From the NCBI GenBank assembly GCA_964394925.1, contig CAYMZG010000005.1:26873-90872 (forward strand): a stretch of DNA of 64,000 bases, in the 5' to 3' direction. Every line of letters starts with the position of its first letter. Positions within the stretch are counted from its first letter, which is position 1. The translations under genes were made by a program, and so were the position numbers. Source of the stretch: an uncultured Candidatus Saccharibacteria bacterium (GTDB lineage: Bacteria > Patescibacteriota > Saccharimonadia > Saccharimonadales > CAYLGV01). Shown piece by piece: positions 1,928 through 43,387 of this stretch. Under the pieces are notes generated by a model. That model was not told the DNA's origin, did no database searches, and saw only the letters and a list, made by a program, of their open reading frames with translations.

Positions 1928-3074
1928 GCCCATCGTAGTATTAACAGGTGGTGGCACGGGCGGTCATATTACGCCCATTTTGGCGGTTGCCCACGAACTG
2001 AAACAGGCCTCCAGCCAACCAACGACAATTTACATTGGTGAGAAGGGCGGGGCATTCAAAGAGTTAACCGATACCAACCAGGATATTGATCAGAGTTACA
2101 GTATACGAGCAGGCAAGCTGCGACGTTATCACGGCGAATCGTGGCTTACCAGATTGTTTGACGTTAAGACGAACCTACTTAATCTTCGCGATTTATTTTA
2201 TGTACTTGCGGGCGCTTGGCAAGCTTGGCGTTTACTGGGCAAGATCAGGCCATCGGTCGTTTTTCTAAAAGGTGGCTTTGTAGGTGTGCCTGTTGGCATT
2301 GCGGCTGGCCTGCGAAAAATTCCCATTGTCACGCATGACTCGGATGTTATCCCCGGTCTTGCTAACAGATTAGTCAGCCGATGGGTGAACGTACATGCCA
2401 CCGCGCTACCAGCCAACATGTATGCATATCCGAAACACAAGGTTGTGCAAGTAGGGGTCTTGGTTGAGCACTCATATAAACACGTTTCGCCGACTGATGC
2501 TCGTGCATATCGTGAACAGCTTGGTTTACCGGCAGGTGCCCAGATAGTGCTCATTACTGGGGGGAGTTCGGGGGCACAGCGGCTTAATGAGGCGGTACGT
2601 CAGATGATGCCAAAACTTCTGTCGACTTTCGAAGACTTGCATGTGATACATCAAGTTGGCAAGGGCAAACAAGCCGTTTATGACGGCTACAAGCATGATC
2701 GATTGCAAGTATTGGAATTCTTGCGACCAATGTATTTGTACATGGGGGCTGCTGATGTGGTCGTAGCCCGCGCAAGCGGTAATACAATTGCAGAGCTTGG
2801 CGTGCAAGGCAAAGCTAGTATCGTGGTGCCCAGCCCATTTTTAACCGGTGGCCATCAGCTCGAAAACGCGAAGCGCCTGCAGCAGCAGGGGGTTGCGCTG
2901 GTAGTGCAAGAGGCTGATATGTTAAGCGATACCACTGGCTTATTGCCAAGTATAGCGATGTTGTTGCGTGACGAAACCCAGCGAGACAAGCTGGCCAAGG
3001 CGCTGCACAAAGAAGCGATTACCGATGCTGCGGCTCGACTTAGCAAGGTTTTGCTAGAACAGGTGAGTTCATAG
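1884..3074 (+). CDS. murG: UDP-N-acetylglucosamine--N-acetylmuramyl-(pentapeptide) pyrophosphoryl-undecaprenol GlcNAc transferase MurG
   Basis: GGGTGGHITP G-loop, GGSSGAQ and GGHQLENA motifs. An alternative ATG lies at 1899. The gene overlaps the ftsW 3' end. Confidence 0.9.
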   Translation: MNEGLMSTTDHAAHKPIVVLTGGGTGGHITPILAVAHELKQASSQPTTIYIGEKGGAFKELTDTNQDIDQSYSIRAGKLRRYHGESWLTRLFDVKTNLLNLRDLFYVLAGAWQAWRLLGKIRPSVVFLKGGFVGVPVGIAAGLRKIPIVTHDSDVIPGLANRLVSRWVNVHATALPANMYAYPKHKVVQVGVLVEHSYKHVSPTDARAYREQLGLPAGAQIVLITGGSSGAQRLNEAVRQMMPKLLSTFEDLHVIHQVGKGKQAVYDGYKHDRLQVLEFLRPMYLYMGAADVVVARASGNTIAELGVQGKASIVVPSPFLTGGHQLENAKRLQQQGVALVVQEADMLSDTTGLLPSIAMLLRDETQRDKLAKALHKEAITDAAARLSKVLLEQVSS

Positions 3075-20412: not shown

Positions 20413-20489
20413 GGCCCCGTCGTCTAGCGGTTTAGGATATCTGGTTCTCATCCAGAAGATCGCGGGTTCGAATCCCGCCGGGGTCACCA
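20413..20489 (+). tRNA. tRNA-Glu (anticodon CUC), CCA encoded
   Basis: Hand-folded cloverleaf: acceptor GGCCCCG/CGGGGTC, anticodon arm TCTGG-TTCTCAT-CCAGA, T arm GCGGG-TTCGAAT-CCCGC. Confidence 0.9.
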
Positions 20490-20528
20490 AAGTAAAAGGC
20501 TCATCGAAAGATGGGCCTTTTACTTTGG
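20487..20528 (+). terminator. 19-bp hairpin (GAAA loop) that begins inside the tRNA CCA
   Basis: CCAAAGTAAAAGGCTCATC-GAAA-GATGGGCCTTTTACTTTGG. Confidence 0.5.
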
Positions 20529-20636
20529 TTAGGTCTCGCCAGAGACTCCGAAGCCGCAGCGTTCGATCTTCAGGCCCGCTCGCAAGTGCTTGCACTGAGA
20601 ACGGGCGCGGAAGTAAACATCCCGCCGGGGTAACGA
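20529..20636 (+). repeat. tRNA-linked GC-rich structured module, member A, ending in a copy of the tRNA-Glu 3' end
   Basis: Core GCAAGTGCTTGCACTGAG at 20582-20599. ATCCCGCCGGGGT at 20619-20631 matches tRNA positions 20472-20484. Confidence 0.6.
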
Positions 20637-35979: not shown

Positions 35980-36064
35980 GGGCGAGTGGCGGAACTGGTA
36001 TACGCGCACGACTCAAAATCGTGTTCCTAACGGAGTGAGGGTTCGATTCCCTCCTCGCCCACCA
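35980..36064 (+). tRNA. tRNA-Leu (anticodon CAA), long variable arm, CCA encoded
   Basis: Acceptor GGGCGAG/CTCGCCC, anticodon arm CACGA-CTCAAAA-TCGTG, T arm GAGGG-TTCGATT-CCCTC. Confidence 0.9.
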
Positions 36065-36100
36065 AACAAACAGTCCAGCAACGCTGGGCTTTTTGTTTGG
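36062..36100 (+). terminator. long hairpin beginning inside the tRNA CCA
   Basis: CCAAACAAACAGTCCAGC-AAC-GCTGGGCTTTTTGTTTGG, with two small bulges. Confidence 0.5.
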
Positions 36101-36218
36101 TTGATGTGATGAGAACCCGATCGGCGAAGCCGGGGTTCGTTCATGACGAACACGCGCAGGTGCTCGCACCGAGCATGTGAGGAAATGCGAGCGAAGCGAG
36201 TTCCCTCCTCGCCATGCC
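36101..36218 (+). repeat. tRNA-linked GC-rich structured module, member B, ending in a copy of the tRNA-Leu 3' end
   Basis: Core GCAGGTGCTCGCACCGAG at 36156-36173. TTCCCTCCTCGCC at 36201-36213 matches 36047-36059. Confidence 0.6.
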
Positions 36219-41541: not shown

Positions 41542-42126
41542 ATGATCAGGACAGTTGTATTAACGGGCGGGCCATCGGGGGGTAAGTCAACGCTGCATAA
41601 TCAAATCGGCGAACAGCTGACAGGGGTTTACCTAGTGCCCGAAACGGCTACGATGCTGCTGAGCGGTGGATTTCCTGCCCCTTCGGAGCGGCATCCTTGG
41701 GATGAGACATGGCAGGCCGATTTCCAGGTAGCTATTGCCGCCGGTCAGCTCGCGGTAGAGAACATATCGAAACGGCGTGCTGAGCGAGAAGGAAAATCAC
41801 TCATCGTGTTAGATAGAGGGCGACCCGACGGCGCAGCCTACCTGCCAGGTGGTATGCGGGAGTTCGAAGCGATTACTGGCCAGGATGAGCGCACGATGCT
41901 GCATTCGTACGACATGGTGCTGCACATGCCCACCGCGGCAGCGCACCAGGCATACGATCAGAGTAGCAATCCCCATCGCTTCGAAGAAGCGGCGGCAGCG
42001 CTCGAGCTTGATGAAAGAATAATGAAAGTCTGGGAAAATCATCCGAACCGTATTGTGCTCGATGAGATAGATGAAACAGAGCGCATGGCGCATGGGCTGC
42101 GAATCGTGAAGGGCTTGCTCGACTAG
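41542..42126 (+). CDS. AAA_28-type P-loop NTPase
   Basis: Walker A LTGGPSGGKST, then VPETATMLL. Confidence 0.6.
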   Translation: MIRTVVLTGGPSGGKSTLHNQIGEQLTGVYLVPETATMLLSGGFPAPSERHPWDETWQADFQVAIAAGQLAVENISKRRAEREGKSLIVLDRGRPDGAAYLPGGMREFEAITGQDERTMLHSYDMVLHMPTAAAHQAYDQSSNPHRFEEAAAALELDERIMKVWENHPNRIVLDEIDETERMAHGLRIVKGLLD

Positions 42127-42132
42127 GCTGCA

Positions 42133-42267
42133 AATTGTGGCGGAGGGAGAGGGATAGCGGCCTTCGGCCTTCTCCGCTGCGGCGTACTCGGTGCAAGCAC
42201 CTGCGTGCGTCCTCGCTACGCCGAACCCTGCCACTTCGTGCCATGGGTTCTTCACCCCCCCATACAG
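42133..42267 (-). repeat. tRNA-linked GC-rich structured module, member C, ending in a copy of the tRNA-Ser 3' end
   Basis: The core at 42187-42204, read on the minus strand, is GCAGGTGCTTGCACCGAG. The 18 nt at 42138-42155 are identical to 42307-42324. Confidence 0.6.
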
Positions 42268-42308
42268 CAATGTTTATATCCCAGCCTTCGGCTGAGCTAC
42301 AAACATTG
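42268..42308 (-). terminator. hairpin beginning inside the tRNA CCA
   Basis: Minus strand: CAATGTTT...CAGCC-GAA-GGCTG...AAACATTG. Confidence 0.45.
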
Positions 42309-42396
42309 GCGGAGGGAGAGGGATTCGAACCCTCGATACCCTTTCGAGTAAACCCGCGTTCCAGGCGAGCGCCATAAACCACTAGGCGACCCCTCC
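42307..42396 (-). tRNA. tRNA-Ser (anticodon GGA), long variable arm, CCA encoded
   Basis: Acceptor GGAGGGG/TCCCTCC, anticodon arm CTCGC-CTGGAAC-GCGGG, T arm GAGGG-TTCGAAT-CCCTC. Confidence 0.9.
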
Positions 42397-42493
42397 GTAG
42401 TACGTAAAAAACTGGAACGAGAGTAGTATAGCGAAAAAAATCTAAATTTACACCTTGATTACAGATACCGTTAAGAGGTAGACTATATCAAAC

Positions 42494-43387
42494 ATGCCAG
42501 TGATTGAGTTAAAAGACGTCAGTAAACTGTACGGCTTCGGCGATGCTACTACCATAGCGCTCGACGAAGTTAACTTAGTCATTGAGCCGGGCGAGTTTGT
42601 GGCTATCATGGGCCCCAGTGGTTCTGGTAAGTCAACACTGCTTAATATGATGGGCCTCCTCGACCGCCCTACGCACGGTGAATATAAGCTTGGTGAGCGC
42701 TACGTTTCGCGACTGAGGCAAAATCAGCGTGCTAAAGCTCGCCGCGACACCATTGGTTTTGTTTTTCAGTTCTTCAATCTGATCCCTAACCTTACAGTCT
42801 TAGAGAATGTGGCTTTGCCTCTTGCTTATAAGGGCACAACACGAACGCGACGCCTGAAGCAGGCGGGCTATGTATTAGAGCGTGTTGGTTTGGCAGAAAG
42901 GGAGTATTTTTATCCGTGGCAACTGAGTGGCGGTCAGGCCCAGCGCGTGGCTATCGCTCGTGCACTGGTAAACAACCCGAGCATTATTATCGCTGATGAG
43001 CCTACTGGCAACCTCGATAGTGCCTCATCTCGCCTTGTTATGGAGCTACTGAGCGAAATTCACCAGTCTGGTAGCACGATCTTGATGGTCACACATAACC
43101 CTGAGCTAACGCGCTATGCGAGCCGAGTGGTGTTTATGCGAGATGGCTCAATTGTGAATGATGAGCAGTCCGAGGTTGGTCAGCTACCTGACACCATTCG
43201 TCGAAGGGCCTACTTTGTGCCAAAAAAGACAGTTGAAGATGATTTGGCTGGCGTGTCGGCTCTGATGGAGTCCGCACCCGATAAAGCTCTCAAGAGCGGC
43301 CAAAAAACGACGTTAGCGAAGAAGGTGAAGAAGCACCCGCGCTCAAAGTCATATAGCACCAAAGCCAACACAAGGAAGAAAAGATAA
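42494..43387 (+). CDS. ABC transporter ATP-binding protein (MacB/LolD-type) with basic C-terminal tail
   Basis: Walker A GPSGSGKST, signature LSGGQAQR, Walker B IIIADEPT. Confidence 0.9.
   Translation: MPVIELKDVSKLYGFGDATTIALDEVNLVIEPGEFVAIMGPSGSGKSTLLNMMGLLDRPTHGEYKLGERYVSRLRQNQRAKARRDTIGFVFQFFNLIPNLTVLENVALPLAYKGTTRTRRLKQAGYVLERVGLAEREYFYPWQLSGGQAQRVAIARALVNNPSIIIADEPTGNLDSASSRLVMELLSEIHQSGSTILMVTHNPELTRYASRVVFMRDGSIVNDEQSEVGQLPDTIRRRAYFVPKKTVEDDLAGVSALMESAPDKALKSGQKTTLAKKVKKHPRSKSYSTKANTRKKR

Follow-up and report, generated by a model that had tools for sequence, protein, structure and literature searches.

Locus C, in the 64-kb stretch of Candidatus Saccharibacteria DNA analysed here (the window), consists of a tRNA-Ser(GGA) gene followed by a small module which is one copy of a Saccharibacteria-wide, RtT-like family of tRNA trailer elements, seemingly undescribed. 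The initial annotation had proposed a recurrent tRNA-linked module that finishes with a repeat of the tRNA's 3' end and has a core in common with the sister loci A and B, and this is borne out. Searches with an 18-nt core motif returned well over 100 further copies, nearly all of them from Candidatus Saccharibacteria. The tRNA-linked copies (about 45 in the scan of species genomes and 55 in the scan of metagenomes) never lie upstream of the tRNA or on the opposite strand. They start some 90-125 nt past tRNA genes that represent 19 amino-acid types, and 49 relatives have a same-strand tRNA 39-260 nt upstream. The module is thus conserved in relatives, and its small size is the same in more than 100 loci.

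Behind the CCA of the tRNA, the module is composed of a hairpin in terminator format, an antisense copy of the T arm, a variable hairpin, a sense copy of the T-stem 5' strand with UUCG, the core, and the rest of the tRNA 3' end (Table 1). The core, of about 66 nt and two hairpins, is placed precisely at the step from T-loop nt 57 to 58/59. The repeated tRNA 3' end, referred to here as the duplicate, begins in the T loop, measures 17-19 nt in many relatives, and matches its tRNA with a per-position identity of 0.69-0.94. Its CCA end is gone in about 30% of the copies, indicating that a tRNA-like 3' end is not strictly maintained, and in some copies little of the duplicate remains. Of the two half-sites, the T-stem 5' one adjoining the repeat contains imperfections, and the 3' one is perfect. 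This 5' copy is generic (the same GCAGG adjoins four different tRNAs) and looks element-borne, and the sequence directly ahead of the tRNA-end copy (GCU, CGA) is unlike the T-loop sequence ahead of the real tRNA end.

Table 1. Features of locus C and of the two sister elements in the window (positions are those of the window).
Feature	Position	Strand	Evidence or remark
tRNA-Ser(GGA), encoded CCA; cognate tRNA of the module	42307-42396	minus	ARAGORN; Rfam tRNA model 51.1 bits
Trailer hairpin CAATGTTTGTAGCTCAGCC-GAA-GGCTGGGATATAAACATTG	42308 to 42268	minus	Sequence; first helix of minimum-free-energy RNA fold
G7 run, degenerate remnant of antisense arm	42261 to 42255	minus	L002, relatives, Rfam RtT alignment
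Junction UGAAGAA + GAACCC	42245-42254	minus	Sequence; relatives; E. coli RtT
Variable hairpin GCAC-GAA-GUG(G)C, capping the antisense/sense helix	42229-42244	minus	Sequence and fold
Sense copy of T-stem 5' strand + TTCG, CAGGGTTCG (tRNA: GAGGGTTCG)	42222-42230	minus	Start of covariance-model match
Conserved core, at the would-be join of T-loop nt 57/58	42156-42221	minus	R1 = 86 bits
Core linker GCGUAGCGAGG	within 42156-42221	minus	
Core helix P3, GGACGCA with UACGCC	42212-42206 with 42186-42181	minus	Conserved C.A mismatch inside
Core pair C-G, then internal loop GCA/GA	C42205-G42187	minus	
Core hairpin GGUG-CUUG-CACC	42201-42190	minus	
Core GCAGCGGAGAA, then hairpin GGCC-GAA-GGCC, then GCU	hairpin 42169 to 42159	minus	
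Invariant 18-mer of the core	42187-42204	minus	Motif searches
Duplicate ATCCCTCTCCCTCCGCCA, copy of tRNA nt 59-76	42155 to 42138	minus	18/18 identical to tRNA end 42324 to 42307
AAA_28 ATPase ORF	41542-42126		Stop 11 nt from the duplicate of locus C
Locus A element, behind tRNA-Glu(CTC) 20413-20489	20490-20636	plus	R1 48.4 bits at 20557-20636
Locus B element, behind tRNA-Leu(CAA) 35980-36064	36065-36218	plus	R1 60.5 bits at 36131-36218

At locus C, a long hairpin and a module of about 130 nt lie between the tRNA and the duplicate. The hairpin, a stem of some 19 bp that includes mismatches and is closed by a GAA loop, begins at the CA of the CCA, as first described. Also confirmed were the GGCC-GAA-GGCC hairpin, the duplicate with its 18 of 18 identities, and the pairing of GAACCC (42250 to 42245, minus strand) with GGGTTC (42228 to 42223) around an inner CAC-GAA-GTG. 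GAACCC is the antisense of GGGUUC, that is, of the T-stem 5' strand and the start of the T loop, and the counterpart of this junction part in locus B, relatives, and E. coli RtT is AUGAGAACC. The duplicate contains AU, the T-stem 3' strand, the acceptor 3' strand, the discriminator, and CCA. The G7 run occupies the position of an antisense arm complementary to the T-stem 3' strand and the acceptor 3' strand, and reads GAGGAGGGAT in the contig L002. The neighbors are an ABC transporter and the AAA_28 ATPase, the latter being the gene whose end had been noted near the module, and only incidental ORFs overlap the module itself. An identical module and duplicate are present in two Logan contigs, L001 and L002, each derived from a different sequencing run, so the assembly artefact considered in the initial annotation does not apply.

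The conservation of the core was assessed with RNAalifold, pair counts, and a model (R1) built from 27 Saccharibacteria cores. Core helices are 88% paired, against 34-48% in slid controls, and their covariation score is 0.312, whereas no control exceeds 0.093. Covariation therefore supports the core helices. In P3, two positions show GC, AU, and UA, in 15/32 and 10/32 sequences. A helix GGCGTA/TACGCC (42222 to 42217 with 42186 to 42181) had originally been proposed to enclose the core. This pairing is present at locus C, but with 52% pairing over the family it is not the conserved helix; TACGCC pairs instead with GGACGCA next to the core (86% paired, covarying). The second core hairpin is not conserved in sequence, and the counts of G.U versus A.C in the core helices do not reveal the folding strand.

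The remaining parts of the module are more variable. The variable hairpin differs in length and sequence among modules, with recurrent hairpin families, and the compensatory changes that had been suggested for these GAA-loop hairpins are borne out. The commonest loop is the C-GNA-G triloop, which is especially stable in DNA mini-hairpins. Antisense copies in relatives span 13-30 nt and usually correspond to the T-stem 3' strand plus a few acceptor nucleotides: nt 62-68 are covered in about 40-45% of the modules and nt 69-76 in about 20%. L077 and L038 carry exact 15-nt antisense copies that include an intact T loop. The arm extends to nt 74 in L107 and to nt 76 in several others. In 25 modules the arm is closer to the complement of the actual tRNA than to that of the sense copy within the module, versus 5 for the opposite case, and at differing T-stem positions it agrees with the tRNA 14 times and with the sense copy 4 times. 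In locus A and other short modules, an unrelated hairpin takes the place of the arm.

All three tRNAs of the window (3/3) carry a module. A 19-nt core pattern occurs three times, against 0.07 expected from a shuffle control, and is therefore not a chance match; together with the independent assemblies and the more than 100 relatives, this rules out chance or artefact as an explanation. The duplicates of loci A and B both measure 13 nt and have decayed at their ends, in locus A at the CCA; locus A belongs to a short subtype. All three copies have a degenerate antisense arm. Outside the motif, which is kept, the three are just 42-51% alike; they are old and divergent, with no recent burst within this 64-kb window.

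Beyond the window, modules form tandem arrays (three copies in L036, two each in L097 and L061) and also occur as orphans without a tRNA, which still bear both tRNA-end copies. In L056, a solo core is joined to a duplicated tRNA 5' fragment. Cores at different tRNA types in different genomes can be 89-96% identical, and the core is also found within the non-tRNA tandem hairpin repeats of spirochaete-type contigs, a distribution that mobile DNA fits as well as functional RNA. A viral scan returned one related copy, L122, without a tRNA, the remainder being chance matches, and a phage attP origin is therefore unsupported. A synteny search around locus C for an empty site found AAA_28 orthologues (60-70% identity) in another gene order and without the tRNA-Ser, and yielded no empty-site/filled-site pair; the metagenome protein scan for the same synteny gave no matches.

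The trailer hairpin of locus C has the A-rich/T-rich terminator format of the tRNA genes of these genomes, without the T run. A simple terminator scan called this hairpin at locus B and left it uncalled at loci C and A, and a module-free tRNA-Ser in L056 has the same type of hairpin behind it. In at least 17 of 63 modules, a second terminator comes immediately after the duplicate's CCA. Scanning of loci C, A, and B found no promoter-like site in or before the module. At locus B and in many relatives, the hairpin is a good intrinsic terminator, and read-through from the tRNA would be limited there.

The design is that of the RtT repeats (RF00391, rttR of the E. coli tyrT-tyrV locus). Both elements lie in the tRNA 3' trailer and on the same strand, and the last 19 nt of the E. 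coli repeat reproduce the tRNA 3' end up to and including CCA, comparable to the duplicates of locus C and many relatives. The order of parts is also the same: in E. coli, an GGGGAAGG arm complementary to the T-stem 3' strand and the acceptor is followed by the junction AUGAGAA, the antisense T-stem 5' strand, a short loop, the sense T-stem 5' strand with UUCGA, an insert that measures about 70 nt and contains many C-GNA-G hairpins, and AUCCUUCCCCCACCACCA. The antisense, junction, and sense parts read GGGGGGG-UGAAGAA-CCC...GGGUUCG at locus C, AUGAGAACCC...GGGGUUCG at locus B, and GGGGAAGG-AUGAGAA-(C/G)CUUCG...AAGGUUCGA in E. coli. Both are repeated in tandem, with 3 to 4 copies in E. coli and 3 in L036. 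The sequence of the RtT insert, however, differs from that of the Saccharibacteria core. With the Rfam RtT model, locus C reaches 15.2 bits (E about 1, with a gathering score of 45), locus B and L022 have no match at E<=10, and a gathering scan of the window has none. Conversely, R1 gives 11-12.8 bits on the four E. coli RtT repeats, whereas a bare T arm already reaches 14.6 bits, which means that the core makes no contribution there. With the same design but a score of only 15 bits, the family is not a member of RF00391 but an RtT-like design with a new core. It also differs from E. coli RtT in its position behind a terminator-format hairpin, its 19 tRNA types, and its distant phylum. The initial annotation had overlooked that the core splits the T arm at nt 57/58, that the upstream arm is antisense tRNA, and that the design is shared with the RtT repeats of the tyrT locus. 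The function of RtT is described as unknown (10.1101/2024.07.17.603846, PMC7542023). One report describes RtT-family RNAs as processed from tRNA operon transcripts and visible on Northern blots (PMC4986893, citing Bosl and Kersten 1991).

Several other assignments were discarded. No known Rfam family reaches its threshold, and the weak matches to sX4, a plastid UTR, and permuted tmRNA reflect the tRNA T arm. A weak UGAUGA...CUGA match to an archaeal C/D box at locus B was judged to be due to chance. Mimicry of the 16S rRNA V1 hairpin, whose tip is similar (GAAGCUUGCUUC), was rejected with an R1 score of just 1.9 bits there. A group I or T-loop intron was also dismissed: the core is too small, no Rfam intron matches at the modules, and there is no upstream tRNA 5' half. 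The tRNA introns reported from Patescibacteria are anticodon-loop introns (PMC13011429).

The most likely reading, to which we nonetheless give somewhat less than even weight, is that the family constitutes a co-transcribed and processed RtT-like tRNA trailer RNA. A unit consisting of a replacement tRNA 3' end, the hairpin, the antisense arm, and the core would have entered a tRNA gene at the T loop. The tRNA gene would have stayed intact, with the original 3' end, often with its terminator, pushed downstream as the duplicate; the arrays, orphans, and second terminators suggest such an insertion. Tandem arrays may stem from repeated events or unequal crossing-over, and orphans from tRNA loss. 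The promoterless element would be transcribed through read-through from the tRNA promoter and cut from the tRNA by tRNA-processing enzymes, both with a precedent in E. coli RtT, and would persist as a small RNA, some 130-170 nt long, that shares its 3' end with the tRNA. The selected part would be the core hairpin, with P3, the C.A mismatch, the GCA/GA loop, and the CUUG loop, which probably serves in protein binding or as a signal for processing. Pairing by the antisense arm would make each copy specific for its own tRNA or pre-tRNA, and could be masked by the sense copy. Candidate roles are the control or surveillance of cognate tRNA maturation, or a tRNA 3'-end decoy. A comparable release is known for 3'ETS-leuZ of E. 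coli, a stable RNA freed from a tRNA 3' external spacer by the tRNA-processing machinery, although this is a short sponge for small RNAs without tRNA copies, a conserved core, or a multi-locus family.

The main rival, possible but in our view rather doubtful, is a selfish, non-autonomous mobile DNA resembling REP/REPIN, PATE, or miniature integrative elements. Here, a transposase or recombinase acting in trans would recognize the hairpins as single- or double-stranded DNA, the element would home to the universally conserved T-loop sequence GGTTCG|AATCC and survive by carrying a replacement tRNA 3' end, and any transcripts would be incidental. The single fixed insertion point (57/58) in the most conserved tRNA sequence, the generic and seemingly element-borne T-stem 5' copy, the common C-GNA-G triloops, the arrays and orphans, the near-identical cores at different tRNAs, the solo core of L056, and the occurrence of the core in spirochaete-type repeats and on one viral contig all favor it. 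Like REP, BIME, REPIN, and the IS200/IS605-derived PATE elements, the modules are small, non-coding, hairpin-based, and multi-copy, have an imperfect conserved hairpin with mismatches or bulges, are inserted after a fixed TTCG, and have a close core relative within spirochaete-type tandem hairpin repeats. RtT copies are reported to vary among Erwinia strains (PMC7542023), and RtT-like elements to resemble BIME repeats, to which they have been tied (PMC2965389). However, the flanks of the Saccharibacteria modules are, unlike those of REP or PATE, locus-specific tRNA copies in both orientations, and simple transposition leaves the locus-specific antisense arm unexplained. The antisense and sense arms folded around the core also resemble the attP(+) site of the CTX phage and the integron attC sites, where inverted target-like copies fold into a hairpin with an unpaired center that mimics a duplex target, but the module arms follow each tRNA rather than one fixed site. 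Moreover, neither a transposase, including one of the Y1 type, nor an integrase is found among the best 25 of the 78 Pfam families of the 57 window ORFs, the three window copies are divergent and old, the synteny search gave no filled/empty pair, and the retention of many elements in streamlined genomes of about 1 Mb argues for some benefit.

A tRNA-like minihelix, in which the antisense run and the duplicated 3' strand would mimic an acceptor/T stem ending in NCCA and act as substrate or decoy for RNase P, RNase Z, the CCA-adding enzyme, aminoacyl-tRNA synthetases, or tRNA-end toxins, appears improbable. The closing helix that the initial annotation had tentatively drawn from the G run is possible at locus C: the G7 (GGAGGGA within the GAGGAGGGAT of L002) can pair with UCCCUCC, and many relatives as well as E. 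coli RtT show such a closing helix. The Rfam RtT alignment places the run in the closing helix of its consensus structure, several antisense arms reach nt 74 or 76, and, the 3' strand being that of the tRNA, such a helix would reproduce the tRNA base pairs. Nevertheless, an acceptor minihelix is not a family feature, as the antisense arm is mostly T stem with acceptor positions covered in a minority of modules, is replaced by an unrelated hairpin in locus A and other short modules, and follows the tRNA rather than the module's sense strand; the frequent loss of the CCA end also speaks against it.

Even less probable is that the modules are decayed attachment-site scars, with the duplicate as attR and the module as the remnant of an integrase-borne island. 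A direct repeat of 17-19 nt from the T loop to CCA is the classic tRNA-gene integration footprint of P4-type integrases, and, as in integrase islands and phages at tRNA genes, the gene is kept intact by an element-borne copy while the displaced original end lies downstream with a terminator; the imperfect 5' and perfect 3' half-sites also agree. Unlike such islands, the module is non-coding and about 150 nt long, with only some 130 nt between the repeats and a size that is constant in more than 100 loci. Its core splits the T arm of the supposed attR and is conserved with compensatory changes, unlike a decaying remnant, it has an antisense arm, and no integrase lies nearby among the best 25 of the 78 Pfam families of the window ORFs. 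The least probable of the alternatives is a guide-RNA-like system, in which the core would be the scaffold, the 17-19-nt tRNA 3' end a 3' guide for a TnpB/IscB-like protein, and the T-loop TTCGA the adjacent motif. The geometry would fit, with a structured scaffold and directly behind it a locus-specific segment of 17-19 nt, and the sequence ahead of the copy differs from the T loop ahead of the real target. Against it, no nuclease gene adjoins any of the three window copies or any other copy examined, no TnpB-type domain is found among the best 25 of the 78 Pfam families of the window ORFs, the guide would match an essential tRNA gene of the cell itself, and its end has often decayed.

A more far-reaching proposal, which we regard as unlikely, is that each module is either a tRNA-specific RNA device or a T-loop-homing mobile element of about 150 nt with a replacement tRNA end. 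The device would combine a protein-binding core, an arm pairing with the cognate tRNA or pre-tRNA, and a spare tRNA 3' end, and could serve a minimal-genome phylum to monitor, regulate, protect, or even repair single tRNAs. As for the homing element, few known site-specific mobile elements would be as small. Either of the two would explain E. coli RtT as well.

The RtT repeats of E. coli have been known since the 1970s to 1990s, to our knowledge without an accepted function. An RtT-like design in a very distant, genome-reduced phylum, with a different core and at tRNAs of 19 specificities, suggests that it is the design as such that matters, and the more than 100 natural variants provide material for finding its constrained parts. 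In genome analysis, the modules swell the apparent 'intergenic' space, their tRNA-end repeats may confuse assembly and tRNA annotation, and they mark synteny breakpoints. If the modules are mobile, they would represent a new way of targeting essential genes without killing the host. Saccharibacteria (TM7) are episymbionts with minimal RNA-processing repertoires, and if the modules are true RNAs acting on their cognate tRNAs, they would add a new layer to the tRNA biology of this group.

The module behind tRNA-Ser(GGA) at locus C is a real feature of the chromosome. All of the parts described in the initial annotation were recovered on the minus strand (see the table), including the perfect duplication of the tRNA end and the closeness of the module to the stop codon of an ATPase gene. 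In addition, each of the window's three tRNAs (that of locus C, tRNA-Glu(CTC) at locus A and tRNA-Leu(CAA) at locus B) is followed by one occurrence of a 19-nt core pattern, three in total where 0.07 would be expected, and two Logan assemblies from other sequencing runs carry an identical module and duplicate. The core motif is also found behind tRNAs in many Saccharibacteria loci.

Positions of the parts of locus C, read 5' to 3' on the minus strand, and of the adjoining ATPase gene
Feature	Position	Strand	Basis or remark
tRNA-Ser(GGA)	42307-42396	minus	ARAGORN and Rfam
Trailer hairpin, starting at the CA of CCA	42308->42268	minus	sequence reading
GAACCC and GGGTTC, with CAC-GAA-GTG between	42250->42245 and 42228->42223	minus	sequence reading
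GGCGTA and TACGCC	42222->42217 and 42186->42181	minus	sequence reading
GGCC-GAA-GGCC hairpin	42169->42159	minus	sequence reading
Duplicate, ATCCCTCTCCCTCCGCCA	42155->42138	minus	18/18 identity with tRNA end 42324->42307
AAA_28 ATPase ORF	end at 42126		11 nt past the duplicate

When each module is aligned with its own tRNA, the order of parts is constant: the CCA of the tRNA is followed by a hairpin, an antisense copy, a variable hairpin, a sense T-stem 5' strand with TTCG, the core, and finally a tRNA end. The first hairpin has the A-rich/stem/T-rich format that also follows a module-free tRNA-Ser gene in L056 (L numbers denote stretches of other genomes or assemblies compared with the window). 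The antisense copy represents the 3' third of the tRNA, typically nt 47-68. In L014, L028, L038, L077 and L107 a stretch of 13-15 nt that takes in the entire T loop matches without error, and the copy extends to nt 74 in L107 and to nt 76 in several modules. The variable hairpin is drawn from a few recurrent families; its commonest type is the C-GNA-G triloop hairpin (GAA, GCA, GUA; window 20490-20636, 36065-36218 and 42138-42306, and related modules). Since the core, of about 66 nt, is preceded by the T-stem 5' strand with TTCG and followed by A(A)U, the T-stem 3' strand, the acceptor 3' strand and NCCA, it splits a partial second copy of the tRNA precisely in the T loop, separating nt 57 from nt 58/59. 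Elements of the same design with unrelated cores lie, at approximate minus-strand positions, in L019 (281-100, Ser-GCT), L036 (2521-2290, Gly-GCC) and L060 (2412-2180, Leu-CAG); in these, a hairpin and an antisense T arm precede 12-20 nt copied from the 3' end of the tRNA, the internal domains are unrelated, and in L019 the sense T arm is intact, its T loop free of insertion.

This layout also explains the pairing between a G-rich run and the duplicate that had been tentatively suggested for locus C. The G7 run there belongs to a decayed antisense arm (G7-UGAAGAA-CCC; the variant in L002, a Logan contig, retains GAGGAGGGAU), but in short modules, such as that of locus A, a small unrelated hairpin takes the place of the arm that would pair with the duplicate, which is why no equivalent had been seen at loci A and B. 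In L002 (741-988, corresponding to window 42133-42347) the module, duplicate and trailer hairpin match those of the window exactly; the 3' end of tRNA-Ser differs (ATCCCTCCCCTTCCGCCA, with another variable arm) and the G7 run is replaced by GAGGAGGGAT; this contig is either a strain with another tRNA-Ser at that site or a chimeric unitig.

The structure of the core was derived with RNAalifold on 32 sequences, with pair counts on 27. It comprises a helix directly flanking the core motif (P3), which holds a conserved C.A mismatch, an invariant C-G pair, a GCA/GA internal loop and a hairpin GGUG-CUUG-CACC, whose pairing is retained in variants such as GAAG-CUUG-CUUC (L036) and AGUG..CACU (locus A). 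One position of P3 is GC, AU or UA in 17, 8 and 7 sequences, another position is GC, AU, UA, CG or GU in 21, 5, 4, 1 and 1, and the 3' hairpin of the core covaries too (GGAC, GGCC, GGGC and others). In this structure 88% of cells are paired, compared with 34-48% for slid partners; the corresponding covariation scores are 0.312 and at most 0.093. The GGCGTA/TACGCC helix, earlier proposed to enclose the core, has both strands at locus C but is 52% paired across the family, and the partner of TACGCC at locus C is GGACGCA (42212-42206). A covariance model built from the core alignment (R1, 27 Saccharibacteria cores; E-values rough) locates three copies and no more in the window (86, 60.5 and 48.4 bits), and 72 across the loci collected.

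An exact scan for the 18-nt core motif against one genome per species (596 Gb) matched at least 118 stretches, although gathering relatives by exact 18-mer overstates its conservation and under-samples diverged members. About half of the matches listed are Candidatus Saccharibacteria or Saccharimonadales MAGs; the others listed are high-GC genomes, in roughly the number estimated to arise by chance. In Saccharibacteria loci a tRNA gene on the same strand precedes the motif by 63-181 nt, in most cases by about 90-125 nt, and the copy of the tRNA 3' end begins 20-45 nt after the motif. Together with 55 further tRNA-linked copies from a metagenome scan, the linked tRNAs cover 19 amino acids, all except Cys, and modules are absent behind some tRNAs. 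A typical tRNA-Val-linked module (76 bits) on a 5.6-kb contig titled Candidatus Limnocylindrales (L017, DATLEQ010000001.1) reflects either mis-binning or a rare case outside the phylum.

Several modules are arranged in tandem: in L036 tRNA-Ala is followed by three identical units, and arrays of two occur in L097 and L061. For at least 11 modules, here called orphans, neither ARAGORN nor Rfam detects a tRNA, yet a degenerate '...CCA' fragment and a hairpin still stand in front of them; the metagenome set holds further ones. Orphans are often preceded by recurrent RNA-like 3' ends, GGTTCCAATTCGAATG...ACCA or GGTTATAACTTCCTCTAYYRWGGTGAGCCA (L075 ~1240-1440, L005 ~2800-3000 on the minus strand, L204, L236, L252; L186, L215, L232, L234), in which ARAGORN and Rfam found no tRNA, tmRNA or intron. 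One Saccharimonadales contig with an orphan also carries an unrelated group I intron (L006 3083-3317, minus; Rfam Intron_gpI, 89.4 bits). Different tRNA types from different genomes can carry cores that are 89-96% identical, nearest-neighbour cores share a tRNA type in 12 of 46 cases, and the three window copies are mutually only 42-51% alike, a pattern of long residence mixed with either exchange or very strong constraint.

The 18-mer with a P3-like helix also occurs in non-tRNA contexts, namely spirochaete-type contigs and one viral contig. In the former it is enclosed by GAGUCGUACC...GGAACGAUCUC within tandem 41-43-nt hairpin repeats that have no tRNA and match no Rfam family, often directly upstream of a ribosome-binding site and ATG (L108 5078-5230; L063 5764-5934; L030, L062, L098, L138, L161, L174, L188, L201, L219, L238, L254). 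In the viral contig (L122 300-470; IMG/VR, IMGVR_UViG_3300024581_002713) a T-arm-like hairpin, AAGGGG-UUGG...CCCCUU, encloses the core; a GGAC-GAA-GUCC hairpin comes next, the intergenic surroundings are highly structured, and ARAGORN finds no tRNA in the 9.8 kb of sequence scanned. L056 (4116-4260, minus) holds a solo core that lacks both the split T arm and the 3' duplicate and is fused behind a duplicated stretch comprising a promoter-like region and the 5'-terminal 24 nt of tRNA-Ser(GGA). The intact tRNA follows directly downstream; it has the same 3' end as the window tRNA-Ser and only a plain terminator after it.

Among Rfam families, the sole suggestive match is RtT (RF00391), full-length at locus C with 15.2 bits against a gathering score of 45, and with no match at locus B or L022. 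Each E. coli tyrT-tyrV repeat reads GGGGAAGG-AUGAGAA-(C/G)CUUCG-ACCA-AGGUUCGA, insert, AUCCUUCCCCCACCACCA, the same design as in Saccharibacteria, and its insert of about 70 nt likewise contains C-GCA-G and C-GAA-G hairpins. However, R1 scores these repeats at 11-12.8 bits, below a bare T arm (14.6), so the frame is common to both but the cores are not detectably homologous. The Saccharibacteria modules are thus classified as RtT-type in design, outside RF00391. One source (PMC4986893) describes RtT as an expressed RNA that is processed out of the transcripts of tRNA operons and linked to several tRNAs in Enterobacteria and Pasteurellaceae; it varies among Erwinia strains (PMC7542023), resembles BIME repeats (PMC2965389) and has an unknown mode of action (10.1101/2024.07.17.603846). 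A literature search returned no report of RtT-like elements in Saccharibacteria.

Two parts of the module are specific to their locus. Per-position identity between the duplicate and the tRNA is 0.84-0.94 along the T-stem strand and about 0.7 at the CCA end. In 25 modules the antisense arm is a better fit to the real tRNA than to the module's own sense copy, and in 5 the reverse holds; where tRNA and sense copy differ within the T stem (nt 49-53), the arm is complementary to the tRNA in 14 cases and to the sense copy in 4. The sense T-stem 5' copy is often generic-looking, with 0.59 identity at its two outer positions, and a GCAGG copy adjoins tRNAs whose own strands are CCAGG, GUAGG, AGAGG or GCAGG. 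The variable hairpin, this copy with TTCG, and the core consequently form a contiguous generic block. Such a module may have arisen from a unit entering the tRNA gene at the T loop and displacing the original 3' end, the unit bringing a replacement 3' end, hairpin, antisense arm, variable hairpin, generic T-stem 5' strand with TTCG, and core. As expected if the duplicate is the displaced original end, its CCA is in part of the modules directly followed by a second terminator-format hairpin: at least 17 of 63 under a strict rule, and more on visual inspection.

The main rival to a functional trailer RNA, and somewhat less probable than it, is a non-autonomous, selfish DNA element that would home to the conserved sequence of the T loop. 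The generic block, the tandem arrays and orphans, and the core relatives away from tRNAs would all suit such an element, as would the frequency of C-GNA-G triloops, which account for 29 of 158 perfect-stem hairpins; these loops are exceptionally stable in DNA and hence hint at a single-stranded DNA stage. It would nevertheless leave the antisense arm unexplained, the window copies are divergent, and no mobile-element gene is among the best 25 of 78 Pfam families matched in the window, whose content is that of an ordinary chromosome (topoisomerase, FtsW, GltX, DprA, Pth and others). No empty site was found among relatives with 60-70% identical AAA_28, because locus C (window 41542-42494) lies at a synteny break: in those relatives the genes after AAA_28 are a 253-264-aa ORF, a glycosyltransferase and an APH kinase instead of tRNA-Ser and the ABC transporter, and one relative (L130) has a serine-recombinase-domain gene nearby. 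Readings of the module as a tRNA-like minihelix, an att scar or a guide RNA are less likely.

A trailer RNA, compatible with a selfish origin, is the reading tentatively preferred here, at somewhat under even chances. No promoter-like site was found in or before the modules at loci A, B and C, nor a canonical terminator at C and A, which favours read-through and release. By analogy with RtT, the module would be transcribed by read-through from the tRNA, and the enzymes of tRNA processing would then release a small RNA whose 3' end is that of the tRNA itself. In this RNA the core may act as a selected protein-binding or processing signal and the antisense arm may confer specificity for the cognate tRNA or pre-tRNA.
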